DNA from: Clostridia bacterium
Lineage (GTDB): Bacteria; Bacillota; Clostridia; TANB77; CAG-508
NCBI GenBank assembly: GCA_017404545.1
Contig: JAFRCC010000006.1
Span: 8 to 64,007 of the forward strand
Direction: 5' to 3'
Length of the DNA: 64,000 nucleotides
The translations under genes were made by a program, and so were the position numbers. A model generated the notes under the pieces. That model was not told the origin of the DNA. It saw only the letters and a list, made by a program, of their open reading frames with translations, and made no database searches. The stretch's first letter is position 1. Each line of letters starts with the position of its first letter. This document shows, piece after piece, positions 5,789-54,604 of this stretch.

Positions 5789-6657
5789 ATAGAGATTTTT
5801 TGAAGGTCGAAATTTACTACTTCTAAGATTTTCAATTATTATACGTTTCCCTATTTTTTTTCTATTTTTTTGAAAACATACGCCATGTGTTTTTGGACTT
5901 TTTGGTGTTCAAACTAACAAAAATTAATTTTATTATTGAATATTGTTCATTAAATCAAAAAGATAACATTTAAATATTCAAATGACAAATCTATAATTGA
6001 CCTTCACTAAAATACTTGAATTGATTTCAAAACGTTATTTTAGGGAAGGTAAAAAAAGTATCAATAGGAGTTTCAAATAAGTTAGAAATTGTTAAAAATC
6101 AGTAAAATTACAAAAAAAGACTGGATTCATAAATAAGGATTATAAAAGTAAAAAAGATATTTACTTTTTGAACAACGAGCTGATAAATATGTTTTTTATT
6201 TATAATCCTCGTAATGGGGTCAGTTAAGAAAGATAAAAAGAGTTAAACGGAGTCGCAAAACCATGTTTAATGCCTTTACTGTTCAAAACTTAACCCAATA
6301 ACTAGTTTATCTTTATAAATATATAAAGATTTGCACTAATATTAGGTTTTTTGAATAGAAAATAAGGTAAACAAATGTATTCAACTTTTTTTATTTTTCG
6401 TTATTTTTTTGTAGGTACTTGAGTTTAGATCAAGAATTACCTCATTACTTGGTTTTATTATTGATATTTTTGAGAGATATGAGAAGGGCTTTTGTTATTT
6501 AAATAACAATTAGTCCTCAATATCGGTATATTTATATGTATAGCGATATAAATTAAGAATTAGATTAATAATTTTTAGTTAAATATTAATCTGCTAGTGA
6601 ATAACGCTCCAATGAGTTATTCGGAGAATGATGAGGAGTTAAGATGGAGTCGCAACC

Positions 6658-6852
6658 ATGTACGAAATAAGAAAATGGGTAATTAAACCAGTCTTGAATG
6701 AGGTTATATATTCTAACCTCAACTTTCAAGCTCTGGAGGAAATACTCGGAGAACTCTCTGATAATATGAGTGAAAAAGAGTTCTTTGATTTATACGAAAT
6801 TGAAGAGCTAGAAACTGGATTAAAGAACAACGAAGTATTATGTTCAATTTAA
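6658..6852 (+). CDS. hypothetical early protein
   Basis: ORF preceded by the conserved GGAGTCGCAACCATG translation-initiation motif. Confidence 0.5.
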   Translation: MYEIRKWVIKPVLNEVIYSNLNFQALEEILGELSDNMSEKEFFDLYEIEELETGLKNNEVLCSI

Positions 6853-6904
6853 TCCTTTAGTTTGTCGAATTTTAAAACAAAAAATAACATTAGGAGTCGC
6901 AACC

Positions 6905-7015
6905 ATGTTAAAAGAAGAAGTTATTGACGGGAAACCTCACGTTCTTGTACCTAAAGAGGTATGGAATGAGATTTGGTCTATATTTGATAAAATTACTGAA
7001 ATGGGGGAGTAAATA
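6905..7015 (+). CDS. small hypothetical protein (36 aa)
   Basis: Third copy of GGAGTCGCAACCATG initiates this ORF (MLKEEVIDGKPHVLVPKEVWNEIWSIFDKITEMGE). Confidence 0.3.
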
Positions 7016-7033
7016 TGAGTATTTACTCTCCAT

Positions 7034-7441
7034 ATGAAGTATATCCTTCTTGGATTGATGAAGTTGAATTATCTTTGTGTGAGAATTGCACTTTTGACTG
7101 CGATATTCACCAATACTGCATTAACGAGGTGGATACTAATGACTAAATCAGTAAATCCTTTTATAGATAACACTGATGGCATTTTAACTCACAGCGGTGA
7201 GATTAAAGTTGCCAAATCAAATGTAGAACAAAAGATTTTAGATATAAGTGATGAAGGTAGCGTTTTAGTGAAAGGTAGAACTAAATCATATCACGCTTTA
7301 GTTCACGTGGAACTGTTACCTTTAATCCAATATGCAGAAAAAGGCGATACTGGCTTTATTAAATTCAGAAACGGTGAAGCCTTTATTGTCGGATTTAGAA
7401 AAAACCTAAAACGAGCTGATAAATATGAGAGATTTAATTAA
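7034..7441 (+). CDS. hypothetical protein
   Basis: ORF in the + strand early operon. Confidence 0.45.
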   Translation: MKYILLGLMKLNYLCVRIALLTAIFTNTALTRWILMTKSVNPFIDNTDGILTHSGEIKVAKSNVEQKILDISDEGSVLVKGRTKSYHALVHVELLPLIQYAEKGDTGFIKFRNGEAFIVGFRKNLKRADKYERFN

Positions 7442-7649
7442 GAATTTGCAAGCTAATTGTCCGGAAAATCATTTCATACAATTAGAAACCGTAAAAGACG
7501 AAACCAAATTTAAAATCCGTAAAAATGATAAACTCGGATTTAAAGGGAAACTAATTTGCATTCACTCTAACGGAGTGGTATCTTGCGTTATTAACCAAGA
7601 TTATATAGTCGCTATTTGTTATTGTAAGGAGTTGCCTAAAAATGAGTAA
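7425..7649 (+). CDS. hypothetical protein
   Basis: ATG embedded in the GAGCTGATAAATATG motif. Confidence 0.5.
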   Translation: MRDLIKNLQANCPENHFIQLETVKDETKFKIRKNDKLGFKGKLICIHSNGVVSCVINQDYIVAICYCKELPKNE

Positions 7650-7779
7650 ACCTGCTAGATTATACCCGAAACCAGAACCGATTGTAATAAACCCTAAAAT
7701 AATTTGGATAGGAAGCTTTATTTTTGCCTTAGTGATGGGTTGGATTGGAATTTCAACTTTATTTTACGGGGTGTTATAA
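7642..7779 (+). CDS. small membrane peptide (45 aa)
   Basis: Strong RBS AAGGAG. Hydrophobic peptide (IWIGSFIFALVMGWIGISTLFYGVL). Its stop overlaps the next start as TAATG. Confidence 0.45.
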   Translation: MSKPARLYPKPEPIVINPKIIWIGSFIFALVMGWIGISTLFYGVL

Positions 7780-8189
7780 TGGGTTTAGATATGTATTTAT
7801 ACGGCGCCACAATTACCTTCGAAGGTGAATCATCTAAAATGAAAATTCAACTTGAAGAGGTCGCTTATTGGAGAAAGCAAAACGCAATCCACAACTGGTT
7901 TGTTAATACCGTTCAAGAAGGCGTAGACAATTGCGCTTTATACGGCGTAAGTGAACGTCATCTCAAAAAGCTCCTAGTCGAATGTAAGAAAGTTCTTGAA
8001 AATCCGACTCCGGAAAATGCTATGAAAATTTTACCAACTCTTGGCGGATTCTTTTTTGGTGGAACTGACTTAACTAATGAATATGAGTTAGAATACTATT
8101 TAGGTGGTTTAAAATACACCGTTGAGCGTATACGTGAATTATTGAAAGAAGATGAATTTGAATACTATTATTATAGTTCAAGTTGGTGA
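7779..8189 (+). CDS. hypothetical protein (start taken at the internal ATG of ORF 7704-8189)
   Basis: ORF. Translational coupling to the upstream peptide suggests 7779 as the start. Confidence 0.45.
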   Translation: MGLDMYLYGATITFEGESSKMKIQLEEVAYWRKQNAIHNWFVNTVQEGVDNCALYGVSERHLKKLLVECKKVLENPTPENAMKILPTLGGFFFGGTDLTNEYELEYYLGGLKYTVERIRELLKEDEFEYYYYSSSW

Positions 8190-8193
8190 TTAG

Positions 8194-8454
8194 ATGGAAA
8201 GTAATGTGATTTTAGAAAATTTTGATAAATTAAACGATGATAACGCAATGTTTGTTGAATTTAAAAACGGAGGTTCATTATTGGTCGATAATACTGATAT
8301 AATCCATGCGACTGGCGATTTAATTGAGATTAAAGCAACTGCTGGAACCTACATAACCAAAGTAGATAATGTAATTGGTTTAAAAATCCTTAATCGTGTA
8401 GATATTGTTAAAAAAGCCCTCTTAGGAGAATTAGTAAGTGAAATAGGTGATTAA
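8194..8454 (+). CDS. hypothetical protein
   Basis: ORF with RBS GGTGAT upstream. Confidence 0.45.
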   Translation: MESNVILENFDKLNDDNAMFVEFKNGGSLLVDNTDIIHATGDLIEIKATAGTYITKVDNVIGLKILNRVDIVKKALLGELVSEIGD

Positions 8455-8456
8455 AT

Positions 8457-9017: not shown

Positions 9018-9056
9018 ATATATATTCCCTTCTAATTTTTTTATGAGCTGATAAAT

Positions 9057-9434
9057 ATGATTGAGGAAATTACCAAAGCTGAAGAAAATACTACACCCAA
9101 AATAACCTATCCAGCGTTATTTTACATGGGTTTGAAAGAATTAATACAGACAAAATCTGTTGCATTATTCGAACTAAGGAAACTTGAAAATGATTTGAAC
9201 GACGCTGAAAGAAAGCTATCTCACAAAGAATCTAAGCTCATCTTAACAACTGATTTCAAAGAACTAGGATTAACCAATGAAAAAATGAGGAAATCCTACA
9301 TCTATGACGAGTTATATGATGATAAATGTGATATTGCTGTTATGAAAGGCGATGTTGAAGAAAAAAGAGACACTATTGAAATAATCAACCACTTAATTAG
9401 ACTAAGTGAAATTAAATTGCAAGGAGCGTTATAA
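9057..9434 (+). CDS. hypothetical protein
   Basis: ATG embedded in GAGCTGATAAATATG. Confidence 0.5.
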   Translation: MIEEITKAEENTTPKITYPALFYMGLKELIQTKSVALFELRKLENDLNDAERKLSHKESKLILTTDFKELGLTNEKMRKSYIYDELYDDKCDIAVMKGDVEEKRDTIEIINHLIRLSEIKLQGAL

Positions 9435-9435
9435 A

Positions 9436-9936: not shown

Positions 9937-9956
9937 ATGAACTATTGGAGTAGAAA

Positions 9957-11936
9957 ATGGCTTATAATCCAAAAGGACTGTTAAAAAAGTTCATCGAAGA
10001 TAATTATTCAGATGAAATTGAAGAATGCAAGTCATTACACCGACAGTCCAAAGTTAGTATTGATTTTGTAAAATTGAATCAATACCTCTTAGATGAAAGC
10101 GGTAAAGATTTTTTTCATTGGCGGATGTATTCATTCATTCCCGCTATTGAAGAATTTTACAATACTAACTTAACTCCAAAAGAACATATCAGTTTTAAAT
10201 TCATTAATGTACCTGAAACAGTTGAATTGCATAACTTAGACGCTACTAACAACAAAGAATGGATTTCTTGTAAAGCGATGGTTAAAAACATCACAGATAT
10301 TCGAGTAGACTTGAAACAAGCCGTTTATGAATGTCAAGAATGTCTTAAATTAACCGTCGTTAATGTGGCTGATAGTAATAATATTTTAATTCCGACTGTT
10401 TGTGAAAAATGTCAAGGAAAAAGGTTGAAACTTCTGAAAGATAGTAGCAATTACAGAGATTATCGACTGGTTAAGCTTGAAGAACCTTTAGAACTGCGAA
10501 AGGGAGGCAGTACAAGAGAATTAAAAGGCTATATGCAGGATTATCTTGCGAGCCCTTATCATAATATCAAAGCGGGAGATGTTGTCGATGTTACTGGAGA
10601 ATTTAGGGTTGAACCTCGTAAAGTACGGGGAAAATCAGACGGCTTTGAATTTCTAATCGATATTCATAATATAACTCCCGTTGATGATGCTTTTGAAGAT
10701 TACCGTTTGACTGAATCTGATAAAGAGATGATAATTGAGTTATCTAAAAGGGACGATATTTATGATTTGTTAGTTAATACTCTTGCTCCTGAAATCTTCG
10801 GTCATAAAACTGTCAAAGAAGGCTTAATTTTGCAGTTATTTGAAGGAAGCAGACCGGTCGATGATGTTTTCAAGAATAATAGTATGGAGAGATGGACTTC
10901 TCATATCCTTTTGATAGGTGACCCGGGAATTGGAAAATCTCAATTGGTAACTGCTGTTAATAAAAGAGCTCCTAAAATCATCAGTATTGCAGGAACTAAT
11001 ACAAGCCAATCCGGACTTACAACAAGCGCCGTAAAAGACGAACTAACGGGGACTTGGACGATGGAAGCCGGCGGTGTAATCCTTGCAGATACTGGTTTAT
11101 TGTGTATTGACGAGTTCGACAAATTAACTCCTTCAGCTCAAAAAAGTCTTAATGAACCGATGGAGCAATTATCAGTATCATCTGCTAAAGCCGGTTTGGT
11201 TCAAACTATGACTGCTAGAACCAGTATATTGGCAGTAGCCAATCCTAAGTATTCTAAATTCATGGATTCAAAACCTATGAAAGAACAATTGGATATTGCC
11301 GATTCTACGCTATCTAGGTTTGATTTAATATTTGTTCTAAGGGACAATGTTAATGAAACTAAGGATAGAAATTTGGCTAAAACTCTATTGACTAAAAATT
11401 CTATTGATAATGATGTAGAAACTCTATCTGACGATTGTTTTAAAAAATATATTACTTATATGAAGGCTAATTGCTTTCCAGTTTTGACTGACGAAGTAAT
11501 TGATATTTTATCGGAGTTCTATGTAGAGGTAAGACAACAAGCTAGCAAAAGTTACGATGGCAAACCGATTACTGCAAGGGACTTGAAATCTTTAGAGCGT
11601 TTAACAATTGCCCGTGCTAAATGCGAGGGCAGAACTACAACGAAAGTTGAAGATGCTAAAGAAGCTATACGGATTTATAGTGAAAGTTTATACAGCTTAG
11701 GTTTGGACTTAACAACAGCGGGCGAGCTTGTAGGTGTTGCCTCTAACAAAGAAATGGATATAATTTTGGAAGTTGATAAAATGGTGAAAGCTAAAGCTGA
11801 ATATGAAGGACTTCCTTTGTCTAGTGAAAGTATACAGAATTTAAAACACGAATGCGGAGTATTATGTCAAGGTACTAATCTGGACTATAATGTCGTTGTG
11901 GAAGATGCAATAACGAAATTCGAAAAAAGACTATAA
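9957..11936 (+). CDS. mcm: MCM-family replicative helicase
   Basis: C4 zinc finger (CQEC...CEKC), Walker A ILLIGDPGIGKSQL, Walker B LLCIDEFDKL, arginine finger SRFDLIFVL. Confidence 0.9.
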   Translation: MAYNPKGLLKKFIEDNYSDEIEECKSLHRQSKVSIDFVKLNQYLLDESGKDFFHWRMYSFIPAIEEFYNTNLTPKEHISFKFINVPETVELHNLDATNNKEWISCKAMVKNITDIRVDLKQAVYECQECLKLTVVNVADSNNILIPTVCEKCQGKRLKLLKDSSNYRDYRLVKLEEPLELRKGGSTRELKGYMQDYLASPYHNIKAGDVVDVTGEFRVEPRKVRGKSDGFEFLIDIHNITPVDDAFEDYRLTESDKEMIIELSKRDDIYDLLVNTLAPEIFGHKTVKEGLILQLFEGSRPVDDVFKNNSMERWTSHILLIGDPGIGKSQLVTAVNKRAPKIISIAGTNTSQSGLTTSAVKDELTGTWTMEAGGVILADTGLLCIDEFDKLTPSAQKSLNEPMEQLSVSSAKAGLVQTMTARTSILAVANPKYSKFMDSKPMKEQLDIADSTLSRFDLIFVLRDNVNETKDRNLAKTLLTKNSIDNDVETLSDDCFKKYITYMKANCFPVLTDEVIDILSEFYVEVRQQASKSYDGKPITARDLKSLERLTIARAKCEGRTTTKVEDAKEAIRIYSESLYSLGLDLTTAGELVGVASNKEMDIILEVDKMVKAKAEYEGLPLSSESIQNLKHECGVLCQGTNLDYNVVVEDAITKFEKRL

Positions 11937-11951
11937 GGAGTACTATAATTA

Positions 11952-12038: not shown

Positions 12039-12506
12039 GTGGTAAGTATTACTAAAAAGAATTTTACTATAACTGTCGATGAAGATTTGGTAAAAAAGGC
12101 TAAAAAGCAAATACCTAATATAAGTAAATTTGTTGAAGATTGCTTAAAATGTTTCTTAGGTATGGGAAACAAGCAAGTTTCAACAAGTAGACAATACGAA
12201 CTGATACAAACTATAAGTAAATGTCAATTAGAACTGCATTTAATGAATGAGAAAAGTAACATTGAAAAATCTAGAAAAGAAGCTGAAACTGAAGAAATTA
12301 ATCTTGTTTGGAGGAAATTATACGCCGAGTATAGAGATACAAGAAAAATTGACTCTGCTAAGCTAAAAGAGGCTGAAAAAATATTAGGAGTTTCTAGTGA
12401 GGAGCTAACTGATATTATTGAAGTCTTATTTGTCTATCACAACGAAACTGAAATAGACATTACAGATTGGTTCGAGGTTTACAATGAATACGGGTACGGT
12501 GATTGA
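12039..12506 (+). CDS. ribbon-helix-helix (CopG-like) DNA-binding protein with a C-terminal acidic domain; GTG start
   Basis: N-terminus KKNFTITVDEDLVKKAKK...ISKFVEDCLKCFL fits the RHH beta-alpha-alpha pattern. RBS CGAGGTG. Confidence 0.5.
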   Translation: MVSITKKNFTITVDEDLVKKAKKQIPNISKFVEDCLKCFLGMGNKQVSTSRQYELIQTISKCQLELHLMNEKSNIEKSRKEAETEEINLVWRKLYAEYRDTRKIDSAKLKEAEKILGVSSEELTDIIEVLFVYHNETEIDITDWFEVYNEYGYGD

Positions 12507-12584
12507 TAAAATAAGAAACGTTACAACCTAAATAGTCGAATATTATTCAAATTAATCAAAATATCAAAAAACGAGCTGATAAAT

Positions 12585-13118
12585 ATGATTAGTATATATG
12601 AAGATTTTGTAAAGGATTATAATAATCCTAATATCACTGGAGAAGACATTAGGAGATTGAATCACCTAAACGCTCATCAGTATAGCAAATTAAGAGCTAA
12701 AGCATTAGATAATGGTGATATTTCAACTCCTAGACATATGAACACCACCGGCGCTAAATTCTACACTAAAACTAAACGTGGAGATTTTATTGTAAAGAAA
12801 CAATACGGCAACAAGACTGTTTTAGTCGGCAGATTTCCTGATCAAGCTACAGCAGAGATGATAGTATCTTTGTGTAAAAGAGTAAATTGGGATTTAAAAC
12901 AAATATCTAGCGTCATCGACGAAAATAAAGTCAAACCTAAAAACTACACCTACGTCAATGGATATTATATTGTAGAAAAACGAATAAACGGGAAAAGGAT
13001 TGTTTTCTATCGTGGGAAACACGAGGCTGAAGCAATCCATCTAGTAAATGAGCTAAGAAAAAACGATTGGGACAAATCGAAGGTGAATTTAATACTTGAT
13101 GAAATGAGTTTGAACTAA
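12585..13118 (+). CDS. tandem AP2-like DNA-binding domain protein
   Basis: Two repeats resembling AP2/integrase-type DNA-binding domains (GDFIVKKQYGNKTVLVGRFPDQATAEMIV; NGYYIVEKRINGKRIVFYRGKHEAEAIHLV). Start carries the GAGCTGATAAATATG motif. Confidence 0.4.
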   Translation: MISIYEDFVKDYNNPNITGEDIRRLNHLNAHQYSKLRAKALDNGDISTPRHMNTTGAKFYTKTKRGDFIVKKQYGNKTVLVGRFPDQATAEMIVSLCKRVNWDLKQISSVIDENKVKPKNYTYVNGYYIVEKRINGKRIVFYRGKHEAEAIHLVNELRKNDWDKSKVNLILDEMSLN

Positions 13119-20197: not shown

Positions 20198-20628
20198 AAT
20201 AATAATTCCTTGAGTAAATTTTTATTTATACTATTATTTATAGATGTTTAAAAAGAGATTATATGCATTTAATATTTAATTAAACTAATTTTAAGAGATT
20301 AATATTCAAAATTAATGATTATTAAAGCTTATTTAAAAAATAATTCTAGTATATAAATTTAGGTTTTATGTAAATTAGTTCTTATTTTCAATTATATATA
20401 GTATAATTCCCTAATATTGTATTGGAAACTAAATTTTATAGTTTTCAAACGGAAAATAAGTCAGCAAAACCTAATAGATATTTGTTCAAGTTTTAACCCT
20501 AGTAACTTTATAATTCTTGACTTATTTTCCTTTATTCCTTCCGTTCCTTTTTTTAGTGCCGATGAAATGAATAACGAGTCGGTGAAATTATGAGTATTAA
20601 GATTATTTTTAAGTGAGGTGTCTATTGT

Positions 20629-21426: not shown

Positions 21427-21481
21427 AATATCTAATAAGAATACCTTCACCAAATCGAGATGATTTTTATTATAGTTTTTT

Positions 21482-21751
21482 ATGAAGAGGATTGAAGTTA
21501 AAATGTCTAATAAACCTTATTCAAATCTAATCTGTCCGAATTGTGAAAATAAGGGAGATTATGAGCTAGATGATAATGAGGAAATAGTTTGTATTCATTG
21601 CGGACTAGTTATCAAATCTCCATATCCCTATTCAGCAGGTATTAGGTTTAAGACATTAACGGAGATTCTAGACGATAAAAGAAATGAAAGAAAAGAAAAT
21701 AAACGTTGGAGGAGAGAGAATGAGCGACGTAAAAAGTTTCAAAAAATATAG
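21482..21751 (+). CDS. zinc-ribbon protein
   Basis: CPNCEN...CIHCG four-Cys ribbon; basic C-terminus. Confidence 0.45.
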   Translation: MKRIEVKMSNKPYSNLICPNCENKGDYELDDNEEIVCIHCGLVIKSPYPYSAGIRFKTLTEILDDKRNERKENKRWRRENERRKKFQKI

Positions 21752-21953: not shown

Positions 21954-22177
21954 TTATGTCTAATGAGAGAACTCCATATTTACAAGAATTAATCAGATTA
22001 TCTTCAAAAGCAACATTAGTAATTGCTAGCCACCTCTTTAATGAGGAATACGACCCCGAAGATACTTATAAAGATATAAGAGAGGCTTTAAAATTCTTGA
22101 AAAATGACGATAAATTAATCGTGAATGAAAAGGAAATCGATGAGGAATTTATTGAAATAAGTATTGAATTGAGATGA
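21950..22177 (+). CDS. hypothetical protein
   Basis: ORF. Confidence 0.4.
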   Translation: MIMSNERTPYLQELIRLSSKATLVIASHLFNEEYDPEDTYKDIREALKFLKNDDKLIVNEKEIDEEFIEISIELR

Positions 22178-22521
22178 TAAAAATGAGCAAACCTTTAACA
22201 GAAATAATTCCTTGGAGGCGTACAATTTGGACTTACGGGTTTGTAAAGACTACTTTGTCCGGTTCCTTAATATCTACCGGCGTTGTACTAATCTTTAACG
22301 GAGTTACAAATCATCCGTTGTTTCACGGAATTAACGAAATTGCTATAATTTGCGGGTTCATTGCTATAATTCTCGCAATAGCGGTTATAACTAGTATAGA
22401 TAAGTACAAGGAAAAGACCAAAAGAGAGGAGCTTGAAGCGATAGATAAACAAATTGACGATAGAGCACATGAGATAGCTGAACAGAAGGTCTTAGAATAT
22501 CTTGATAGAATGAGTAAATAA
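22174..22521 (+). CDS. membrane protein
   Basis: ORF with TM helices. Confidence 0.4.
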   Translation: MIKMSKPLTEIIPWRRTIWTYGFVKTTLSGSLISTGVVLIFNGVTNHPLFHGINEIAIICGFIAIILAIAVITSIDKYKEKTKREELEAIDKQIDDRAHEIAEQKVLEYLDRMSK

Positions 22522-28147: not shown

Positions 28148-28417
28148 TACAATTATTATCTAAATATATATCGATAATAAATTATAATTTTATCTATCTA
28201 TTTTTATCAATTTATTTTATTTTTTCTAATACTTTTGTTTTAATCAGCTCTTGCTATTTTTATTAGAGTATATATTGAAGGTACGTTTAATTTAACTAAT
28301 TTAACTTTTGAGAAAAATGTTACTTCATCTTGTGCGAATTTTAGTGAATTATCTTACCATTTTGTTTTTCCTTCGATAATGTACCTTCATCATTCCTTTA
28401 TTTAGAGCTGATTTATT

Positions 28418-29755
28418 ATGAAAATTAATTATACTCCGTTGAATAGTAGTTTAGATATTAACAAAAGACAAATTCAAATGAGTATAGCTCCAAAAACCAC
28501 TAAGGAGGACAAGGATTACAAATACCGCATTGATCCTATTGTCCCCGTTAGTATAGCTCAAAACTTAATCTTGCAGAACAATCGTCTTGATAAATCTATT
28601 CGTATCTTAGCTCAAGATGTAATCTTAAATGAGTTTACTTATTTATCTGATACGGAAAATGAGATTGAAAATACTGTTTCTAGCTTTTGGAAAAATAATA
28701 TAAACGAACTCTATAAACAATTGCAAGAATATTATTCTTACGGTTTCGGAGCTTCAGAGATAATATTTGATGAAAAAACCGGATTGCCTAAAGAGTTGTA
28801 TCAAATTCCCGCCGAAACCTTATTCATCAAACAAGAATCTAATAGAGATGGAACTTACAGTTATTACGCCATTCAAAAGATTGACGGAAAATCAGACGTT
28901 AAGATGAAACTCAGTCGTTTCGAGTATGATCAAGAGGACGATGACTTACCAGTTTGCTTTTGGTTAGGTGGTGGTAAGACCAGTGAGTTTTATGAGATTC
29001 CTTATTGGTTACCTGCATTTAACAGTATATCTGCTAAAGTAGCTTTGGACGAGTTAAATGCTAAAAAAATCAATGAAGGGAACTTAATGAGTGGAATACT
29101 TGTTATAAGACGTCCGCCTGCTTTTGAGGGTCAAAAAGAAAAAACTAAAAAAGACCTCGAAGACCAAATGACTGACGCCGGAACTGGTATTTTAGTAATG
29201 GACTTAGAGAGCTTCAACGCTGATATTCCTTTAGAAGTTCAATATGTTCCGATTAGTGAGCAAAATTATTCCTATTTATCAGAATTGGCTGACCGTTGCG
29301 ATGAGGACATTTTGGCTTGTTTTAGTATTCCTAAAGTCCGATTAATGATTGATGACGTTACAGAGTCAATGAATAGTCAAAAATCCAATACTATTTATGA
29401 AATTTATACTAAGAGTTTGGAAAATGAACAATTACCTTTCGAGATTGAAATCAACAAATTCAACAGGAAATACTTCAAGTACACTGGCGTAATCGATATA
29501 GAAACCCCAATTTTTAGTGATAAAAAGGACGTTGAAGTTACATCAATATTAAATCTCTTCAATAACGGCATATTAACGTTAGGAGAGACCATTAAAGCAG
29601 TTAGCGTTTATTATCCAAAACTAGCCTTGGAGTATAATGAGACTAATCCATTATTTAATGAGCGTTATTACAATGGAAGGTTATTAGGTACAAACGAATA
29701 TTCTAGTGAAGAATTTAGTGAGATTGAAGGTGTTATGAAATGGTTTCAACCTTGA
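28418..29755 (+). CDS. portal protein (by position and size)
   Basis: 445-aa ORF immediately after terminase; acidic C-terminus. Confidence 0.5.
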   Translation: MKINYTPLNSSLDINKRQIQMSIAPKTTKEDKDYKYRIDPIVPVSIAQNLILQNNRLDKSIRILAQDVILNEFTYLSDTENEIENTVSSFWKNNINELYKQLQEYYSYGFGASEIIFDEKTGLPKELYQIPAETLFIKQESNRDGTYSYYAIQKIDGKSDVKMKLSRFEYDQEDDDLPVCFWLGGGKTSEFYEIPYWLPAFNSISAKVALDELNAKKINEGNLMSGILVIRRPPAFEGQKEKTKKDLEDQMTDAGTGILVMDLESFNADIPLEVQYVPISEQNYSYLSELADRCDEDILACFSIPKVRLMIDDVTESMNSQKSNTIYEIYTKSLENEQLPFEIEINKFNRKYFKYTGVIDIETPIFSDKKDVEVTSILNLFNNGILTLGETIKAVSVYYPKLALEYNETNPLFNERYYNGRLLGTNEYSSEEFSEIEGVMKWFQP

Positions 29756-31756: not shown

Positions 31757-31786
31757 ACTTACAAATTATTTGAAGAGCTGATAAAT

Positions 31787-33184
31787 ATGTCTGTAGAAGT
31801 TGTAACAAAAGAGACAATTGATAAAAATTTGCCATTTATTTTAAAATGGTCTAAAAATCCTAAAACTAACGGAGGCGCTATCAATCCGGGTTGGAAACAA
31901 CAAACTGAAATTGATAGGTTCCTTGAATTAGTTGAAAATACTCCTAGTATATTAAACGATGCTAGATTTATCCAAATGGAAAGTATAGAACACGATATTT
32001 CATACTTACGTGTTAAAGCTAGATTGCAATCAATGAAAAAACTTAGCGGTGATAATAAAGGTGCTCCTTTACAAAAAGAATATACTACTGATTTAGACGA
32101 AGTTGTACCTGAATTTAGCCGTTCTAAACTCGAAGCTGAACCATTTTCAATATTCACTTACACTAGTAAATTGTTCTTAAAAACTAATATTGAAAAAGAG
32201 TCCTTTTTACCACACATGGAAGCAATCTTAGCTGAAAGAGCCGGTTATTCTGCCGAAAATATTGGTATGTACGGTATTAAAAACGACAATACAACCAGTA
32301 CCGACGGAATACATCAAATTAACGGTGTTTTCAAACAATTACAAGACATCGCAAGTACCTACGAAACCAACGTAGCAATCGACCGTAAAGCTCCGATGGG
32401 TTATTTCAAAGACATCGACGCCTCAAAAGATTTAGTAAAACAAATCAAAAGAATGATTACTCAATTTACTAAACAAAGAGGTAAAAGGTCTAAAGCTAAA
32501 ATCTACGTTTCTACTGAATTAGAAGGTCTTTTAATTGAAGAAGCAGACCAAAGACCAACCGAACGTGGAGATAACCTTTATTTCGATGATAACGGACAAT
32601 TAACCTTATGGGGCGTTCCTATTGCTCAAGCTGATTTCTTAGACGAACCCGACAACGGATTTGATGAACAAATCTTAATGGCTGACCCAGATTCTATTGT
32701 ATTTGGTTTCTTAAATGAAATTGAATCTGAAAACGATTATGAGTTATCCGCAAAAGCTTACTTGTCTACTGTGGACGTCTACTTCGATGTATTAATCTTG
32801 TATAATAAAGACGTTCTCGCTGCTAGAATCATTAATATTCCTTCCGCAGTTATAGACGATGAGGAAACTGAAGAAGAAAATACTTCTTCTCAAACCTCAA
32901 CTCAAGAAGATACATCTTCCCAAACTTCTAATGAAATAGAAACTCCAACAACCCGTAACATTAATTTTGTAATTAATGACGGAACTGACGCAATACAAGG
33001 CGCTACTGTAACTATCGGTGAGATAACTGGTACTACTGGTAGTCAAGGCGGTTGTACATTACAAGGAGTAAGCGATGGTGAAAATTCCGTAACTGTTGAA
33101 GCTGAAGGTTATACTACCAAAACTGAAACTATCACTGTTTCCGAGTCTGATACTTCATTTACCATCAGTTTAGTGAGTGCATAA
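31787..33184 (+). CDS. major capsid protein with C-terminal Ser/Thr linker and Ig-like domain
   Basis: Position after protease/scaffold. Start carries GAGCTGATAAATATG. C-terminal Big-like segment (GATVTIGEITGTTGSQGGCTLQGVSDGENSVTVEAEGYTTKTETITV). Confidence 0.55.
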   Translation: MSVEVVTKETIDKNLPFILKWSKNPKTNGGAINPGWKQQTEIDRFLELVENTPSILNDARFIQMESIEHDISYLRVKARLQSMKKLSGDNKGAPLQKEYTTDLDEVVPEFSRSKLEAEPFSIFTYTSKLFLKTNIEKESFLPHMEAILAERAGYSAENIGMYGIKNDNTTSTDGIHQINGVFKQLQDIASTYETNVAIDRKAPMGYFKDIDASKDLVKQIKRMITQFTKQRGKRSKAKIYVSTELEGLLIEEADQRPTERGDNLYFDDNGQLTLWGVPIAQADFLDEPDNGFDEQILMADPDSIVFGFLNEIESENDYELSAKAYLSTVDVYFDVLILYNKDVLAARIINIPSAVIDDEETEEENTSSQTSTQEDTSSQTSNEIETPTTRNINFVINDGTDAIQGATVTIGEITGTTGSQGGCTLQGVSDGENSVTVEAEGYTTKTETITVSESDTSFTISLVSA

Positions 33185-36810: not shown

Positions 36811-36985
36811 ACCTAGAAAATGGAAAATTAAGACACTTAACTCAATTATACATAGCCGGATACAAACTAAACAACGGCAATATTGAAAACCTAACAAATT
36901 TACAAAAAATAGCGATAATTTGTATGAAAGAAATTAGCAGAAATCACAGTTTAAAAAATAAAGCATTTTTCGTAGTTGATTAAAA

Positions 36986-39247
36986 ATGGCAGAAAATAAC
37001 TTAGATATCAATGTTAGAGCTAAAGCTGACAAAACCGAAGTAGAGGACTTGTCAGATGCAATAAATACTCTAAAAGAAAAAGACAATAATGTAGATATTG
37101 CCGTTAATGTTGATAATTCTGAAATTGATGATGCTGAAGAGTCTAGCGAAAATCTAAGCGATTCAATGGAAAATGCTTCAGATAGCGCTGATAATCTAAG
37201 TTCTTCAATAGGGAATGTTGATAGTTCACCTATCGATGACGTCTCAAGTTCCGCGGGAGATGCTGATGAGAATTTGGATAGCGCTAGCGGTTCTGCTGAA
37301 AATCTACAAGTCAGTATTTCAAATATCGACCCTTCAATTTTTGAACAATTAGTCGATTCAATAAGGGCGTCTGCTGAAGAGATGGAGAATTTAAAGAATA
37401 ATACTGACGACGCTAACACTAGCATGACTATGGTTGATGCTATGGCTAGTGCAACATTATCGGCTGGAGTAACTAGTGGGTTTATGTCCGCTTCAAATTC
37501 CGCCGGAAATTATACTGATACTATGGTTCGTTTAGGCTACGCATTGAGCGATACTAGTATGACTGCGGAACAAGCTGAACAAAGATACGGAAGTTTAATT
37601 TCAACTATGGTTTCTGAAACCGGTAGAGGTGCTGGAGCTGTACGTTCTCATTTAATTAGTTTAGGAAATGTAGGAATTACAAATGAGCAAATATTAAAAG
37701 ACAGTTTTGAAGGAATTTCTAAAGCGTCTTTTCAAATGGGTGAAAATCTCGAAACTATGGAGATGAAATTTCAAGCAATTGCACTCACTGGTATGGCAGG
37801 TAAAAGACAATTAAAGTCTTTTGGTCTTGAAACTAAAGATTTAGCTGACGTTATGGGAGTTTCTGTTGATGAGGTTTCAGATAAATTCAAGAATTTAGAT
37901 GCCGAGTCTAGAGCTTCAATTTTATCTACAGCTTTGAATATGAAATACGGTTCAGAAGTAACTGAAAATTACAAAAACAGTTATGAACATCTCATCGATT
38001 CTCTAAATAGGGCAAAAGATTATTTCATCAGAGTTGTAGGTGAGGCGTTATTACCTATTTTAATTCCGACTATTCAAAATACTGCAAATATTATCAATAC
38101 TCTAGCGGGAGCGTTTCGAGGACTTCCTGACCCAATCAAGGGAGTAATTGGTTCTGCTCTTAGTTTAGTTGCGGGAGTTACTGCTATTGGTTTGGGAATA
38201 TCAGCGACTACTAAGTTTATTTCAGCAGCGATTGGCCCTTTCCTCAAATTAGCTCAATCCGAGCGTGCCGTAGCGATAGCCCAATGGTTACTCAATGCGG
38301 CGATGGACGCTAACCCTATCGTGTTAATTACAATTGCGATAATTGCTTTAATTGCGATTCTAGCTTATTTGTATTTCAACAACGAACAAGTAAGACAAGC
38401 GATTGATAATTTAGGTCAAAGCTTTATTAACGCCGGTCAAATAATCTATTCTAGCGTTTTAAACTTTGTAAATTGGGTAGTTAGTCAATTACAATTTCTT
38501 TATAATTATATTATGACTTTAGGCGGTTTATTAGATTCCAACGTTTCAATTACGGGAAATAATATTATAGATAGCGTTATAGCAGTCATGTATTTTATTG
38601 CAACTTTGCCTTATCAATTATCGGTTATTTTCATTAATATGATTGCTAAAACTTTGGGCTTTGGGAATAACTTTGTTCAAAGAATGTTTAGTGCTGGATT
38701 AAATTCAGTTACTAGATTTATGGGTCAAATAACAACCCTTCCGTCTAGATTTATGACTGAATTAAATAAAATGTTATCGGCGGTTAATACGTGGGCGTCT
38801 ACTTTGCCTGCTAAATTTTGGGAAGCGGGAGTAAACGCTGTTAAAAACTTCTTATCAGCATTAGGAATTAATTCTCCCGGAACTATGCAAAAGAAATTGA
38901 TTAAAGAGATGGAAGATACCGGCTCAAGAATACCAATTGCTAGTGAAGGAATTATCAAAAACTTAGGAGTTGTTGCTAAAAACGCTGTTAAATCCTTTGG
39001 AAATCCTAAATTTGATGTAGGATTTAATACGGGTGATTTAAATGAGATAAAATCCGGTAATTTAGAGATATCCAATACCAGTTTATTAGAGTTATTATCA
39101 TCTAGCGGTAATAACGGCAATGGAAAAACAATTAATCTTACTCTAAATGTCGGTACTGTTGATAAAAGGGAGAGAGTTGATGAAATTATTGATGCTGTTC
39201 GTGAATATTTCTTATGGGATAATACAACAGCAGGGAGGACTGTATGA
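36986..39247 (+). CDS. tail tape measure protein
   Basis: 753 aa with an acidic N-terminal region, central hydrophobic TM segments (VIGSALSLVAGVTAIGLGI...IVLITIAIIALIAILAYLYF), and a position typical of tape measure proteins. Confidence 0.7.
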   Translation: MAENNLDINVRAKADKTEVEDLSDAINTLKEKDNNVDIAVNVDNSEIDDAEESSENLSDSMENASDSADNLSSSIGNVDSSPIDDVSSSAGDADENLDSASGSAENLQVSISNIDPSIFEQLVDSIRASAEEMENLKNNTDDANTSMTMVDAMASATLSAGVTSGFMSASNSAGNYTDTMVRLGYALSDTSMTAEQAEQRYGSLISTMVSETGRGAGAVRSHLISLGNVGITNEQILKDSFEGISKASFQMGENLETMEMKFQAIALTGMAGKRQLKSFGLETKDLADVMGVSVDEVSDKFKNLDAESRASILSTALNMKYGSEVTENYKNSYEHLIDSLNRAKDYFIRVVGEALLPILIPTIQNTANIINTLAGAFRGLPDPIKGVIGSALSLVAGVTAIGLGISATTKFISAAIGPFLKLAQSERAVAIAQWLLNAAMDANPIVLITIAIIALIAILAYLYFNNEQVRQAIDNLGQSFINAGQIIYSSVLNFVNWVVSQLQFLYNYIMTLGGLLDSNVSITGNNIIDSVIAVMYFIATLPYQLSVIFINMIAKTLGFGNNFVQRMFSAGLNSVTRFMGQITTLPSRFMTELNKMLSAVNTWASTLPAKFWEAGVNAVKNFLSALGINSPGTMQKKLIKEMEDTGSRIPIASEGIIKNLGVVAKNAVKSFGNPKFDVGFNTGDLNEIKSGNLEISNTSLLELLSSSGNNGNGKTINLTLNVGTVDKRERVDEIIDAVREYFLWDNTTAGRTV

Positions 39248-42462: not shown

Positions 42463-42881
42463 AGGAGGTTGAGTCATTTATGGAACAAATAGTAGAATTA
42501 GGAGCTGATTTAAACTGCAATTGGGAATTTAAAGACGGAGATTTACAAATTGTTGAAAATAAAGAGAATTTAGTTCAGGCAATTTTAAATCGATTAAATT
42601 GTTCATATGATAGTTTGGATTTGTTCTATTATGATTACGGTAGTGTAATATCCAATTTTCTAGGTTGGAAAAAGTCAGATAAAACTTTAGAGTTCATAAG
42701 ATTGGAAGTTGAAAACACTTTAGGTCAAGAACCTCGATTAAACAATTTTAACGTTGAAGTGTCCTATAAAAGTGATGGTAAAGTTTTAATCGAATTATAC
42801 GTTGTTTTTGATGATGAAACTGATTTAACTATGAGTTTAGTGTTAGAAAAAGGAGGCGAAGTCATTGCCACTGGAGAATGA
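42456..42881 (+). CDS. gp25/GPW-like baseplate wedge protein
   Basis: LVQAILNRLNCSYDSLDLFYYDYGS...LGQEPRL matches the GPW/gp25 pattern, including the EPR motif. Confidence 0.5.
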   Translation: MLKEVESFMEQIVELGADLNCNWEFKDGDLQIVENKENLVQAILNRLNCSYDSLDLFYYDYGSVISNFLGWKKSDKTLEFIRLEVENTLGQEPRLNNFNVEVSYKSDGKVLIELYVVFDDETDLTMSLVLEKGGEVIATGE

Positions 42882-48122: not shown

Positions 48123-48126
48123 ATAA

Positions 48127-50799: not shown

Positions 50800-50813
50800 A
50801 AGAGCTGATAAAT

Positions 50814-51800
50814 ATGATAAAGAAAAGCGAAATTAAGCTAATTGCTGAAAAAATCAAAGAATATGTAGAAAAAAATAAGGAAATACCCAATTCAATAGAA
50901 GTAAATAAGAAAAAATACTCAAAAACCGAGTGTTTATACATTTTAGGATATGCTATTGATCATCTAAATGAAAATTTTGATTTTAAAAGCGGTAAAGTAG
51001 CAAGTAATCCTGTAATTACTGTCATTAATGAAGATATTTATGAGTCTGATTATAAAGACCAATCTAAAAGATTATGCCAATATTTAAATCAAAACGGTAA
51101 AGCTCCGAATTACATTAAATCAGTTAAATCCTCAACTAAGATTTCGCCGGATTTGGAGTTGTACGCTTTTGCTAAAATAATCGATTATTATTACAAAAAT
51201 AAAAGATTGCCTAATTATTGCAATTATAATTCTAGCGTATTGGCTAGCGTTAAGTCCAGTAAAAACAATTGCAGTAATCCTTATAAATCATCTCCTCACC
51301 CTACTAAAAAGGGTTGCGATGCTATGGGTCAAAATACTGGTTATTTTTGTGCAATTTGTGCACTGCAACATTCTTTATTCAAATTCGGTATCTACGTTTC
51401 TCAAAGCCAATTAGCAAAATGGGCGGGGACAACTAGCTCCGGAACTTCTCATCAAGGAATCCGTACTGCCGTTGCAATGGTAAACAGTAAATATCACGTT
51501 AATATTTCCGTAGATGAGAAAAACTTCAGTGATTTAGGTTTAGAAGGGTTGGCAAAACTTATCTGTAAAAGTAACGTTGATGTGATAATTCATTTGTTAT
51601 ATCGTCTTAAATACGGTCATTATGAGTCAATTAACGAAATTGACGTGAAAAATAAGATGTTTAAGATTTTAAACTCACTTGGAAACAAATGCTCTGGTGG
51701 TTGCTATTGCGGTTACGTTGAGGATAGATCATTAGCTGTAGAAAAATCATATATCGGTGGAATTAGTCAGAAATCCATCATTATTTTAACTAAAAATTAG
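50814..51800 (+). CDS. pei: pseudomurein endoisopeptidase (Pei-like lysin) with two N-terminal pseudomurein-binding repeats
   Basis: Two PMBR-like repeats (IKLIAEKIKEYVEKNKEIPNSIEVNKKKYSKTECLYILGYAI; LCQYLNQNGKAPNYIKS...LELYAFAKIIDYYYKNKRLPNYCNY). C-terminal Cys/His peptidase-like domain (GYFCAICALQHS...HLLYRLKYGHYESIN). Start in GAGCTGATAAATATG. Confidence 0.75.
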   Translation: MIKKSEIKLIAEKIKEYVEKNKEIPNSIEVNKKKYSKTECLYILGYAIDHLNENFDFKSGKVASNPVITVINEDIYESDYKDQSKRLCQYLNQNGKAPNYIKSVKSSTKISPDLELYAFAKIIDYYYKNKRLPNYCNYNSSVLASVKSSKNNCSNPYKSSPHPTKKGCDAMGQNTGYFCAICALQHSLFKFGIYVSQSQLAKWAGTTSSGTSHQGIRTAVAMVNSKYHVNISVDEKNFSDLGLEGLAKLICKSNVDVIIHLLYRLKYGHYESINEIDVKNKMFKILNSLGNKCSGGCYCGYVEDRSLAVEKSYIGGISQKSIIILTKN

Positions 51801-51808
51801 GTGAAAAT

Positions 51809-52278: not shown

Positions 52279-52369
52279 CTCCCTCCCGTATTTTTGAATA
52301 AAAATATTTAAAATGTATAAAAACAAATTTATACCCATATTGCTATCAAAATATGCGCGAGGGTCAATT

Positions 52370-53242: not shown

Positions 53243-53278
53243 ACCAATAGCTAAGCTATTGGTCTTTTTTTGTTTTTT
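53243..53278 (+). terminator. perfect hairpin ACCAATAGCT-A-AGCTATTGGT followed by TCTTTTTTTGTTTTTTG
   Basis: Read directly; begins at the stop codon of the upstream gene. Confidence 0.7.
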
Positions 53279-53432
53279 GTCTAATTTTTTCAAGTGTATG
53301 AAATAGTTTATTTTAACTTTTTTTCTATTGATTATTTTCATTAATTAATTTAACTAATTGTTCTCTGATTAAATACTGCTTAACTAACTCACTTATTTTT
53401 TTTATTAAATTTAAGCATTTACAACGTCGTAA

Positions 53433-53468
53433 TACATATATGTACTAGAGTTCTATCTATAACTATCG
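53433..53468 (+). promoter_or_regulatory. promoter-like bipartite element TACATATATGTA-N12-CTATAACTATCG, followed by a small hairpin CGGA-TTACG-TCCG
   Basis: Identical architecture at 14342-14377 and 54212-54247. Confidence 0.5.
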
Positions 53469-53543
53469 GATTACGTCCGGTGAGAACTTGAATTTATTTA
53501 TAACTTCAAGTGAACTGTTAAAAATGATGGAGAATTGATTTAA

Positions 53544-53708
53544 ATGATTGACGTATATGTAAAAAACTATAACGAAACTTTTGCTATAATCATCGACGGA
53601 GTAATTGTTGATTTTACTACTGTTTATGATGAAGTTGAAAATTTAATCTTAGAAGTTTGTGATGAATTAGGAATTGATACTTGGGATATTAACGTTCAAG
53701 AAAATTAA
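53544..53708 (+). CDS. small hypothetical protein (54 aa)
   Basis: ORF MIDVYVKNYNETFAIIIDGVIVDF... downstream of the promoter-like element. Confidence 0.3.
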   Translation: MIDVYVKNYNETFAIIIDGVIVDFTTVYDEVENLILEVCDELGIDTWDINVQEN

Positions 53709-53726
53709 GAATAACGAGCTGATAAT

Positions 53727-54116
53727 ATGAACAGAGCTGAATACTTAACTGAATTAATGAAAAGAGATGTGGAATCTATTGTAACTGCTGAAGAAGATGT
53801 TAAAGATATGGAGTTAAAATTAATCGTAGAGCTTAAAAAAGCTGAAGAAAAATGTGATGCTTATGAGGAAATGTACGAAGATGACGAAGGACTTATAATG
53901 TCTGCTTATACTGAATACGAAAGAGTTAGAAGTCCTATAACTCAATTAGAGTCTTTAGTTCAAGACTTCAAAATTAGCTTAATCGACCACTACGAACAAT
54001 TGTTAATAGAAAAAAGAGCCTATAATGAGGAAATCCGCAAAGCTTTGGCTACTGCTAAATATAATGTCGTTAAAATGGACGAAACTGTAGAAATTATTAA
54101 AGGTGTTTTAATCTAA
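53727..54116 (+). CDS. hypothetical acidic protein
   Basis: ATG in the 14-nt variant motif GAGCTGATAATATG. Confidence 0.45.
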   Translation: MNRAEYLTELMKRDVESIVTAEEDVKDMELKLIVELKKAEEKCDAYEEMYEDDEGLIMSAYTEYERVRSPITQLESLVQDFKISLIDHYEQLLIEKRAYNEEIRKALATAKYNVVKMDETVEIIKGVLI

Positions 54117-54211
54117 ACACCTATTATTTTTTTTCAATAAAATCCGTTGAATTATTGTAAAACCTCACCAAATATTATGATTTTAAAATTCAATCATTTA
54201 CGTTGGAGTAA

Positions 54212-54247
54212 TACATATATGTAGCGCTGTCCTAACTATAACTATCG
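54212..54247 (+). promoter_or_regulatory. promoter-like bipartite element TACATATATGTA-N12-CTATAACTATCG, followed by a hairpin CGAGA-N9-TCTCG
   Basis: Third copy of the conserved element. Confidence 0.5.
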
Positions 54248-54289
54248 AGAGTTAAATTATCTCGTGAAATAATTAAGGAGCTGATAAAT

Positions 54290-54604
54290 ATGAAAAACTT
54301 TGTTAAAATTATGGAAAACGTTGAAAACCTTGTAAAAGGCTGTGAAGGATATGTTGAATACGGATTTATTCCTGACGAAAATGTCGTTAGTGTAAGAGTA
54401 TTTGAATATGATGATTACGCTGAATATTGCGATGATTTAGAATACTACAACTTTACTCTCGTATTTTCCGAGTTATTCGAACAAATCAAAACCCAATGCA
54501 ATGACCTTGCAGAAAACATAAAATCCTACGTACCAACTGATGCGGATAAAATGTGCTACGGATATTTCAACTACCGTGAAATTCTCATAACTCCTCGTGA
54601 CTAG
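54290..54604 (+). CDS. hypothetical protein
   Basis: ATG in AGGAGCTGATAAATATG. Confidence 0.45.
   Translation: MKNFVKIMENVENLVKGCEGYVEYGFIPDENVVSVRVFEYDDYAEYCDDLEYYNFTLVFSELFEQIKTQCNDLAENIKSYVPTDADKMCYGYFNYREILITPRD

Follow-up and report, generated by a model that had tools for sequence, protein, structure and literature searches.

The window analysed here is a 64,000-nucleotide stretch of contig JAFRCC010000006.1 (GenBank assembly GCA_017404545.1), and it holds a 54-kb tailed provirus in a rumen Methanobrevibacter genome. A 15-nt sequence ending in the start codon ATG, GAGCTGATAAATATG, recurs at the starts of provirus genes in the early, structural, lysis and accessory regions. The motif is real, non-random and under purifying selection, and we favor (probability about 0.6) the explanation that it is a lineage-specific, selected translation-initiation cassette, with exchange of gene cassettes as a by-product. 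We directly observed its position, spacing, strand, conservation and interchange with canonical Shine-Dalgarno (SD) sequences, as well as one recombination junction within it.

A 15-mer at provirus gene starts

The exact 15-mer occurs seven times in the window, always on the plus strand (6177, 7413, 9045, 12573, 31775, 50802 and 54278). Only 0.27 matches with up to two mismatches were expected from dinucleotide-preserving shuffles, and none of 100 shuffles reached eight. A 14-nt variant, GAGCTGATAATATG, was confirmed at 53716, so the recurrence of this sequence at translation starts, first pointed out in an earlier note made from these letters alone, is real. With the variant included, the terminal ATG opens a real open reading frame (ORF) in seven cases, among them the major capsid and Pei lysin genes, and the 6177 copy is followed by an ORF of 12 codons, as that note had described. 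It had also counted four copies with a longer shared sequence; three are exact 18-mers (AACGAGCTGATAAATATG, at 6174, 7410 and 12570), while the fourth AAC-extended copy is the 14-nt variant (53713). Its proposal of GAGGTGAT as the local ribosome-binding site (RBS) has to be dropped, as both window copies of that sequence lie inside ORFs and the common local RBSs are (A)GGTGAT and GGAGG.

The 8-nt core, GAGCTGAT, is found 11 times in the window against 1.21 expected. Nine of the ten plus-strand copies end 3-5 nt before an ATG, the spacing seen at every start-associated copy. These include a ninth member of the set, at the portal gene (28405), which had been overlooked together with two copies away from starts, one at 42502 within an ORF and one on the minus strand (28243-28250). 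The genes that carry the motif are early, portal, capsid, lysin and small accessory genes, and the genes downstream of it are mutually unrelated (Table 1).

Sharing between sites is confined to the 15-18 nt of the motif: when the 60 nt before 21 to 34 sites were compared, neither a conserved position nor a repeat emerged. A scan for TTTAWATA over 34 non-redundant sites gave no positional peak and no TATA-like box at a fixed distance, and a model in which the motif belongs to a promoter or a leaderless mRNA was rejected on these grounds. Intergenic gaps before motif genes do not differ from those before other genes, and the position of the upstream stop codon ranges between 17 nt past the ATG and about 270 nt before it. 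Translational coupling through the internal TGA-TAA was also rejected by inspection, since no upstream ORF in the window ends there.

Ordinary RBSs of the window, (A)GGTGAT or GGAGG, lie 4-8 nt before the start codon, and the motif core takes the same position. For SDs in general the distance to the start codon is about 4-9 nt. Among 53 plus-strand provirus gene starts examined, 24 have a GGAG/GAGG site and 14 a GGTGA site; the motif core GAGCTGA accounts for eight, AGTTGA for one, and the remaining six have a weak site or none. The site before the gene at 8457, TAGGTGATTAAATATG, differs from GAGCTGATAAATATG essentially by a G-to-C change, and likewise GAGCUGAU is GAGGUGAU with its central G changed to C, matching at seven of eight bases. 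We take the host 16S rRNA to end in ...GAUCACCUCCU, an assumption drawn from general archaeal knowledge and from the dominance of GGTGAT and GGAGG sites. With this end, the core would be complementary at seven of eight bases to AUCACCUC, allowing three plus four pairs around a C-C mismatch. When the frequent upstream AC is included, ACGAGCUGAU equals the perfect 10-nt SD AGGAGGUGAU with both GG dinucleotides broken by a G-to-C change. Initiation regions that carry the motif are slightly less structured than others (mean minimum free energy -6.3 versus -8.8 kcal/mol, p=0.02), and unpaired probability showed no significant difference between the two groups.

Conservation among related proviruses

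Relatives were drawn from rumen and gut Methanobrevibacter metagenome-assembled genomes (MAGs). Loci retrieved through the capsid protein and through the MCM protein (L132 and L133) were found without use of the motif. All close relatives retrieved by capsid (capsid 87-94% identical) have the exact 15-mer at the capsid start, where positions -12 to -1 are invariant in eight sequences from seven lineages and the intergenic DNA upstream cannot be aligned. At 13 of 15 ordinary starts in the same sequences, only 0-7 of the 15 upstream positions were kept, and GGAGG, GGTGG and GGTGAT switch freely; more were kept at a start that falls within an overlapping gene and in a short set with only three sequences. 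At the orthologs of 7413, 9045 and 12573, L132 and L133 (90% identical) match the 15-mer base for base between differing flanks, and a further variant in them, GAGCTGAAAATATG, precedes a gene that the window does not have.

Each of the early copies could be followed across relatives. The 7413 copy is invariant in nine of nine sequences (the window and eight relatives, only L132 of which was retrieved without the motif), and the gene behind it comes in three very divergent versions, of MRDLI-, MEKTI- and MNKRLD-type. The 9045 copy is exact in L132/L133 and L142, where the upstream flank is different. The 12573 copy is exact in L132, L144, L172, L173 and L179, and in the last four the motif lies inside the 3' coding end of another upstream gene. 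An ortholog of the orphan copy at 6177 is present in L132 as AACGAGCTaATAAATATG, and the ORF that follows it in relatives runs for 5-28 codons in differing frames.

In portal orthologs, G[A/G]GCTGA stays equally far from the start and the spacer differs (aaat, atat, ctgtt, aact, aatt); holding a core at constant distance while leaving the spacer free is how an SD would be expected to behave. Drift is slower among relatives retrieved through the lysin: the start of the Pei lysin gene is exact in L193 and one base shorter in L192 (GAGCTGATAATATG), and reads GAGCgGATAAATATG (GAGCgGAT) in L194, GAGtTGATAAATATG (GAGtTGAT) in L130 and aAGtTGATAAAATG (aAGtTGAT) in L195. Orthologs of the 129-aa gene retain AACGAGCTGAT with varying spacers (GAGCTGATtaatATG in L193, GAGCTGATattATG in L195, GAGtTGgTaactATG in L192). 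The AGTTGAT site of the 753-aa tail gene is retained in L123 and L125, and L126 and L128 have a GAGGT- or GGTGG-type SD instead. At the equivalent position in L182, between the sheath and baseplate genes, the gene has a PhageMin_Tail match.

The capsid start was also compared in a more distant set, consisting of capsid homologs of 53-65% identity fetched with their flanks. L182 reads GAGTTGAT-aattt-ATG and L185 GAGTTGAT-gaaaa-ATG (both 58-65% identical), and L183 reads AACGGTGATAAATTATG and L184 GGTGATTATTTATG (53-57% identical); plain GGTGAT replaces the motif in some of these. The motif core thus grades over evolutionary time into a canonical SD at the same capsid site. Because the distant orthologs read GAGTTGAT or plain GGTGAT there, the core is best understood as an RBS variant, which makes it less likely that the motif serves primarily as a DNA operator, a processing signal or a promoter element.

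In 280 kb of relatives we counted 67 GAGCTGA sites, 48 of which have an ATG 3-7 nt after them. Forty-one of the 67 open ORFs of at least 40 aa, from 11 protein families as counted in a 27-sequence subset; seven have an ATG with a short ORF (six of these being the orphan site) and 19 lie elsewhere. A set of 35 sequences contained 55 distinct start-associated GAG[C/T]TGA sites, 43 with C and 12 with T, and 32 of the 55 are the exact 15-mer. An upstream AAC is present at 23 of the 55, a figure partly inflated by the way the loci were found. A search of metagenome contigs with the 18-mer returned 46 stretches, 17 from relatives of the provirus and 29 unrelated chance matches of varied GC content. 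Because the 17 had been found through the motif, they were not used for conservation and served only to show which genes it precedes.

Alignment with an unoccupied copy of the host locus (L187) gives the insertion a length of 54.1 kb. L187 matches window positions 1-3052 and 57185-64000, with 13 bp, the att core, common to both alignments, and the provirus therefore spans 3053-57184. Every copy of the motif lies within these limits. GAGCTGA does not occur in about 31 kb of sampled host DNA, made up of the 21-kb empty-site contig L187 (23 genes) and the host flanks of the window. A human-gut Methanobacteriales virus likewise lacked the motif, as did the early regions of the more distant relatives L134 and L135 (MCM 72-80% identical). 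Among the matches listed, a search of IMG/VR with the bare 15-mer gave only single, mostly chance ones, and protein-pattern scans of IMG/VR for the MCM, 104-aa and 129-aa genes gave no matches; we found no literature on the motif sequence together with Methanobrevibacter. On present sampling the motif appears to be specific to this lineage and to its proviruses. The earlier proposal of a selected cis element is upheld by these comparisons, in which the motif is kept at capsid, portal and early orthologous starts while flanks and ordinary RBSs drift, and has zero copies in the host DNA sampled.

Exchange at the motif and its possible readers

Among the roles suggested previously, that of an initiation cassette fits best, given the SD position of the core and its replacement by GGTGAT in distant capsid orthologs. 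The cassette would consist of the SD variant GAG-C-UGAU, a fixed A-rich spacer, AAAU, and the AUG, with the SD variant pairing to the 16S 3' end (3'-CUC C ACUA-5') on both sides of the mismatch. The host ribosome would read it as an RBS; we infer that the ribosome is its sole reader and that expression level is the trait under selection. On this reading it has spread to many gene families in all modules and is maintained there by purifying selection. Canonical Methanobacteriales SDs (GGTGAT/GGAGG) have the same position and spacing, share seven of eight bases of GAGGUGAU with the motif and interchange with it at the capsid start. The motif differs from them in its conserved central mismatch, in its invariant sequence and spacing across unrelated genes, and in being far more conserved between relatives than most ordinary sites.

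Several observations weigh against the initiation cassette. The central base is mismatched to the anti-SD and is never G among the 55 sites, and the predicted duplex is weaker, at about -6.5 kcal/mol compared with -9 to -14 kcal/mol at neighboring canonical sites when the assumed 16S end is used. Neither the spacer AAAU nor the frequent AAC has anti-SD bases to pair with, yet several sites conserve them, and the orphan 6177 copy persists in relatives where no ORF follows. The anti-SD pairing itself depends on the assumed 16S 3' end, and the interpretation is drawn from sequence. Two simple explanations of the mismatch were considered and rejected. Avoidance of an over-strong SD does not account for it because contiguous SDs of 7-8 nt, AGGTGAT(C), are tolerated at other genes of the same provirus. 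Avoidance of an in-frame upstream start codon fails as well, since the T variant creates TTG, a start codon that this virus uses.

Because the conservation of the mismatch and spacer is left unexplained by the ribosome, we kept a trans-acting reader as a rival, although we judge it unlikely. Here the 15-mer would be an RNA operator bound by a dedicated viral or host protein or small RNA, which would activate or repress translation of a dispersed regulon, for example as a lysogeny lock on replication, portal, capsid and lysin genes, or would load ribosomes preferentially onto viral mRNAs. The more specific form of this idea, in which a virus-encoded or virus-induced factor reads the GG-free pseudo-SD, spacer and AUG and so sets the translation of dispersed viral genes, is also rather unlikely. 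A trans-acting reader in general is consistent with the invariance of the mismatched C, spacer and ATG at the capsid site in seven lineages in which most ordinary RBSs drift, a degree of conservation beyond what rRNA pairing needs, and with the identity of the 15-mer at 32 of 55 sites before unrelated genes. The orphan copy without an ORF would also make sense, and a central C or U would each pair with a G in an RNA partner. However, no candidate partner came to light. The window contains a single anti-motif, AATCAGCTCT (28242-28251). Together with the portal copy it makes up a perfect 10-bp inverted repeat, and it was rejected as an antisense partner because it is absent from seven of seven aligned relatives. 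No RegA-like or other RNA-binding domain was seen among the 38 proteins scanned. Orthologous sites drift to canonical SDs and nothing points to a concerted shift throughout the genome, C and T variants occur together on one contig (L124/L130), and the Pei and 129-aa-gene sites differ by one to three bases among relatives. A site for L7Ae of the K-loop type (CUGA...AUGA) was rejected by inspection, as a C' box would need a GA that is missing from the 3' half and ATGA is present in only five of the seven exact copies.

The closest published analog was argued on the same grounds as this trans-acting reader. Start-Associated Sequences (SAS) were described in Cluster K mycobacteriophages, where it was suggested that they might be a binding site for a protein or RNA (Pope et al. 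2011, PMC3203893), and a survey of 188 genomes in 2025 lists their function as still without experimental verification (PMC12699233). SAS are present in 11-19 copies, lie 3-7 nt upstream of the start, have the consensus 5'-GGGATAGGAGCCC with at most two deviations and an intact AGGAG, and are limited to the non-structural arm, where about half carry upstream 17-bp inverted repeats, or ESAS (PMC3203893, PMC12699233). Both SAS and the motif (here seven exact copies and two variants, all on the plus strand) are short, asymmetric, multi-copy repeats in one orientation that end a few bases before a start codon, with ATG strongly preferred. In each case an SD core is joined to strongly conserved positions that cannot pair with 16S rRNA, and copies stand before unrelated gene families, are conserved across sub-lineages and are rarely orphaned. 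SAS are essentially absent from their host; for the motif, the roughly 31 kb of host DNA sampled contain no copy. The sequences are unrelated (GGGATAGGAGCCC versus GAGCTGATAAATATG), the host here is an archaeon, and the copies number eight or nine. In contrast to SAS, the motif is carried by portal, capsid and lysin genes, includes the ATG and spacer in the repeat and has a mismatched SD core. Inverted repeats of the ESAS type were looked for in the 60 nt upstream of the sites and none were found. Of the systems compared, SAS appear functionally closest to the motif, which lies outside the SAS family.

A reading at the DNA level is quite improbable. A provirus repressor would bind the asymmetric 15-mer in one orientation and block transcription initiation or elongation, as at the stoperators of Cluster A mycobacteriophages (the L5 gp71 sites), which are DNA sites bound by the immunity repressor, with more than 20 copies, at least one of them overlapping the early lytic promoter, and no fixed start-codon register (PMC9283540). 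The motif resembles these asymmetric 13-15-mers in following the direction of transcription, in occupying short intergenic spaces and in reaching the early, late and lysis modules, and the orphan copy sits in an early regulatory region. Against a repressor site stand the register to the ATG, which is fixed to a single nucleotide, and the core's behavior as an SD: the portal core stays at SD distance while the spacer sequence changes, and orthologs have plain GGTGAT instead. There are only eight or nine copies, no repressor was identified, and no copy lies at a recognizable promoter or has a TATA-like box at a fixed distance.

We also aligned the window with its relatives to look for junctions at the motif. 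Before the 7413 copy, L142 and the window agree at 95-100% identity, and the agreement takes in the 15 variable bases that immediately precede the motif. Where the following gene begins, identity returns to 90-100%. Between these two stretches, the 72-aa gene of L142 has only 39-55% nucleotide identity to the 74-aa gene of the window and 62-88% to the allele in L180, L169 and L161. Because the match to the window extends up to the motif and includes those variable bases, the left crossover must lie within the 18-mer; the right crossover lies in the conserved 5' end of the next gene. As an observation in its own right, alleles of the 72-74-aa gene (window 7425-7649; L142, L148, L161, L169, L177, L180) move as whole units between genomes that elsewhere share about 95% identity. 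The gene looks to be under diversifying selection and is possibly an immunity or anti-defense determinant.

The suggestion that the motif marks module boundaries is therefore only partly borne out, with one junction exactly in the motif at 7413 but the copies at 9045, 12573, portal and capsid inside contiguous homology blocks. Recombination does exploit the identity of the copies, at least occasionally, and because they are identical the copies would, beside their role in initiation, provide micro-homology for homologous recombination that swaps gene cassettes. Such exchange probably helps to spread and homogenize the motif, and it looks like a consequence rather than the selected function. 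A recombination linker as the selected function, moving gene cassettes between related viruses in the manner of the PeSL elements of T4-type phages, is very improbable. PeSL are about 100 bp long and combine a strong early promoter with a terminator stem-loop, with crossovers between the SD or ATG and the -10 box (PMC2839356), and they provide a precedent for an expression signal before small accessory ORFs that doubles as a crossover site. Further sites point the same way as the 7413 junction: at 12573 the same motif and gene are abutted by different upstream genes, homology to L130 resumes 13 nt before the Pei copy, past a divergent tail-fiber C-terminus, and L193 and L195 have several AACGAG[C/T]TGAT sites before small accessory genes downstream of Pei. 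However, recombination cannot explain the invariance of the capsid copy, the strictest of all, because conserved genes lie on both its sides. Second-order selection for evolvability cannot on its own keep 15 bases unchanged, homologous recombination would have a short stretch of only 15-18 bp to work with, and no promoter or terminator of the PeSL type was found. Unlike PeSL, the motif comprises only an RBS and ATG and also precedes core structural genes.

The last alternative, an RNA-processing or 5'-end element, is in our view the most improbable. The motif would be a cleavage site or a transcription start giving a 12-nt leader, GAGCUGAUAAAU, and processing of this kind in methanogens stabilizes mRNAs and activates translation. 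In a methanogen precedent, processing in 5' untranslated and intergenic regions just upstream of the RBS activates translation and follows a UNMND/NUNAY motif (PMC5499594). The present motif begins 12 nt before the AUG, and the 9045 copy, like several capsid and portal orthologs, has a T-run or terminator-like hairpin immediately before it. However, the published motif is A/U-rich and degenerate, and most of its sites lie 20-30 nt upstream of the start. Apart from the frequent AAC, no base is conserved at the 5' edge of our motif, there is no TATA-like box at a fixed distance, and the SD-like sequence and its replacement by GGTGAT would be left unexplained. Another phage-specific reading of many initiation regions is known from T4, in which RegA operators are variable, A/U-rich and limited to early mRNAs and RegB cleaves the GGAG of SDs (PMC3014915). 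The motif, an SD without any GG dinucleotide, recalls this system, but no homolog was seen here and most provirus genes use GG-containing SDs. We regard methanogen mRNA processing and RegA/RegB as weak mechanistic precedents.

Layout of the provirus and wider meaning

The coordinates of the motif copies, look-alikes and main provirus genes are given in Table 1. The provirus is inserted between a small host gene and an HSP20 gene, and unoccupied integration sites are present in other metagenome contigs (L187, L189). No known RNA families or tRNAs were found in the window.

Table 1. Motif copies, related sites and gene layout of the provirus (window positions; rows from the integrase to the lysin gene are from Pfam and PHROG scans)
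Feature	Position	Strand	Details
Orphan copy, AACGAGCTGATAAATATG	6174..6191	+	In conserved non-coding DNA to the left of the early genes; not followed by a conserved ORF
AAC + 15-mer, 74-aa gene (7425-7649)	7410..7427	+	Overlaps 3' end of ORF 7034-7441
15-mer, 125-aa early gene (9057-9434)	9045..9059	+	Preceded by hairpin and T7 run
AAC + 15-mer, 177-aa gene (12585-13118)	12570..12587	+	Gene has weak HNH-like match
Variant GAGCTGAT-ttatt-ATG, portal gene	28405..28420	+	ORF 28418-29755
15-mer, major capsid gene	31775..31789	+	ORF 31787-33184
15-mer, Pei pseudomurein endoisopeptidase-like lysin gene, 328 aa	50802..50816	+	Pseudomurein-binding repeats (PMBR) and peptidase C39-like; 2 nt past stop of 890-aa tail gene
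14-nt variant AAC-GAGCTGATAATATG, 129-aa gene (53727-54116)	53713..53729	+	
15-mer with AAG before it (AGGAGCTGAT), 104-aa gene (54290-54604)	54278..54292	+	
T variant AGTTGAT-taaaa-ATG, 753-aa tail gene	36974..36988	+	Tape-measure-like by position
Two-mismatch look-alike GAGATGATAAAAATG, 112-aa ORF (22183-22521)	22171..22185	+	
Background GAGCTGAT	42502..42509	+	Inside ORF 42480-42881; not start-associated
Background GAGCTGAT	28243..28250	-	About 100 nt upstream of minus-strand gene; plus strand reads AATCAGCTCT
att core	3040-3052; 57185-57197		13-bp direct repeat CTAATACATA(T/C)TT at provirus ends; L187 15573-15585
Integrase	3178-4290		
MCM helicase	9957-11936		Amid early genes
ERCC4 nuclease			
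Methylase and specificity subunit	17216-20197	-	
ParB-like and radical-SAM genes			
Large terminase	25219		
Portal	28418-29755	+	
Prohead protease	30761		
Major capsid	31787-33184	+	HK97/XkdG-type (phrog_1623), 465 aa
Tail genes			Between capsid and lysin
Pei-type lysin	50814-51800	+	With pseudomurein-binding repeats
Small accessory genes			Downstream of lysin

Several regions next to motif copies have features of their own. About 470 nt of non-coding DNA follow the orphan copy (6190-6657). Blocks of it are kept in L132 (68% identity over 6135-7012) and are 71-83% identical in metagenome relatives, and the stretch could act in early regulation, encode a non-coding RNA or serve as a replication origin. 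In L138, L153 and L179, 4-6 (A/G)GTTACC repeats lie in the 60 nt upstream of a gene whose product begins MIKCDCYPNH, directly upstream of a copy of the motif, and these arrays appear iteron- or operator-like. The window has a different gene at this position (12039-12506), with a weak CcdA-like match.

The region at 28160-28400, between a minus-strand gene (27578-28147) and the portal gene, is non-coding and is kept in seven of seven aligned relatives. It contains the inverted repeat TTCTAATA...TATTAGAG and a TATATAT box, and an AATG(T)ACCTTCA box occurs three times upstream of the portal gene (28276-28287, inverted; 28316-28329; 28378-28391). This looks like the regulatory region of the structural operon, with operator sites or a leader RNA as candidates for its elements.

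The capsid ORF encodes the capsid protein with an in-frame, C-terminal PEGA/CarboxypepD_reg-like domain, which brings it to 465 aa. The capsid protein of relatives is about 350-365 aa long, with the PEGA-like part encoded in the +1 frame, either directly behind the end of the capsid gene or overlapping it (L127 11068-11369, L128, L126, L182, L184). In these relatives it is either a separate decoration protein or the product of a programmed frameshift, and in the window provirus it is fused. The lysin protein, P0239, has an identical counterpart at NCBI under the name of a 'Clostridia bacterium' MAG. Its gene belongs to a Methanobrevibacter provirus, so mis-binning of the contig is the probable explanation.

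The methylase block (17216-20197) has lower GC content and runs opposite to its surroundings. It encodes an N6-adenine methylase of 629 aa and a type I specificity (S) subunit of 363 aa with no restriction subunit seen beside them, and thus forms an orphan methylation module. The S-subunit region of L132 is arranged differently, with a tyrosine recombinase adjoining the S subunit. The motif as a target of this type I-like methylase and S subunit was rejected, as L132 keeps the motif with a different S-subunit gene and arrangement, and the start register would again be unexplained. One relative by MCM (L135, 72% identical; a 44-kb contig from Logan SRR33880934) carries Csf1-, RAMP- and Csf3-like genes beside its replication genes (18985-21577), which is a type IV CRISPR-Cas-like module on a virus-like contig.

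Start-associated repeats had been described previously in Cluster K mycobacteriophages alone, where they have awaited a functional explanation for 14 years (PMC3203893, PMC12699233). By analogy, the motif appears to be a new archaeal example of the same phenomenon. An independent example from an archaeal virus, with an unrelated sequence, suggests a general phenomenon rather than a quirk of one phage cluster. Natural variation makes the question testable, since C and T variants, canonical SDs at the same gene and the core-only portal site are all available. The exchange at 7413 documents the swapping of a gene cassette at an RBS-sized patch of identity in rumen methanogen viruses, and such exchange bears on the diversification of these viruses and of their Pei lysins, which are of interest for methane mitigation. 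If a trans-acting factor does bind the motif as an operator, it would constitute a translational control circuit or a ribosome-capture device and would give a mechanistic answer for SAS-type motifs; if that factor is viral and reads the mismatch, archaeal viruses would gain their first known translational operator system.

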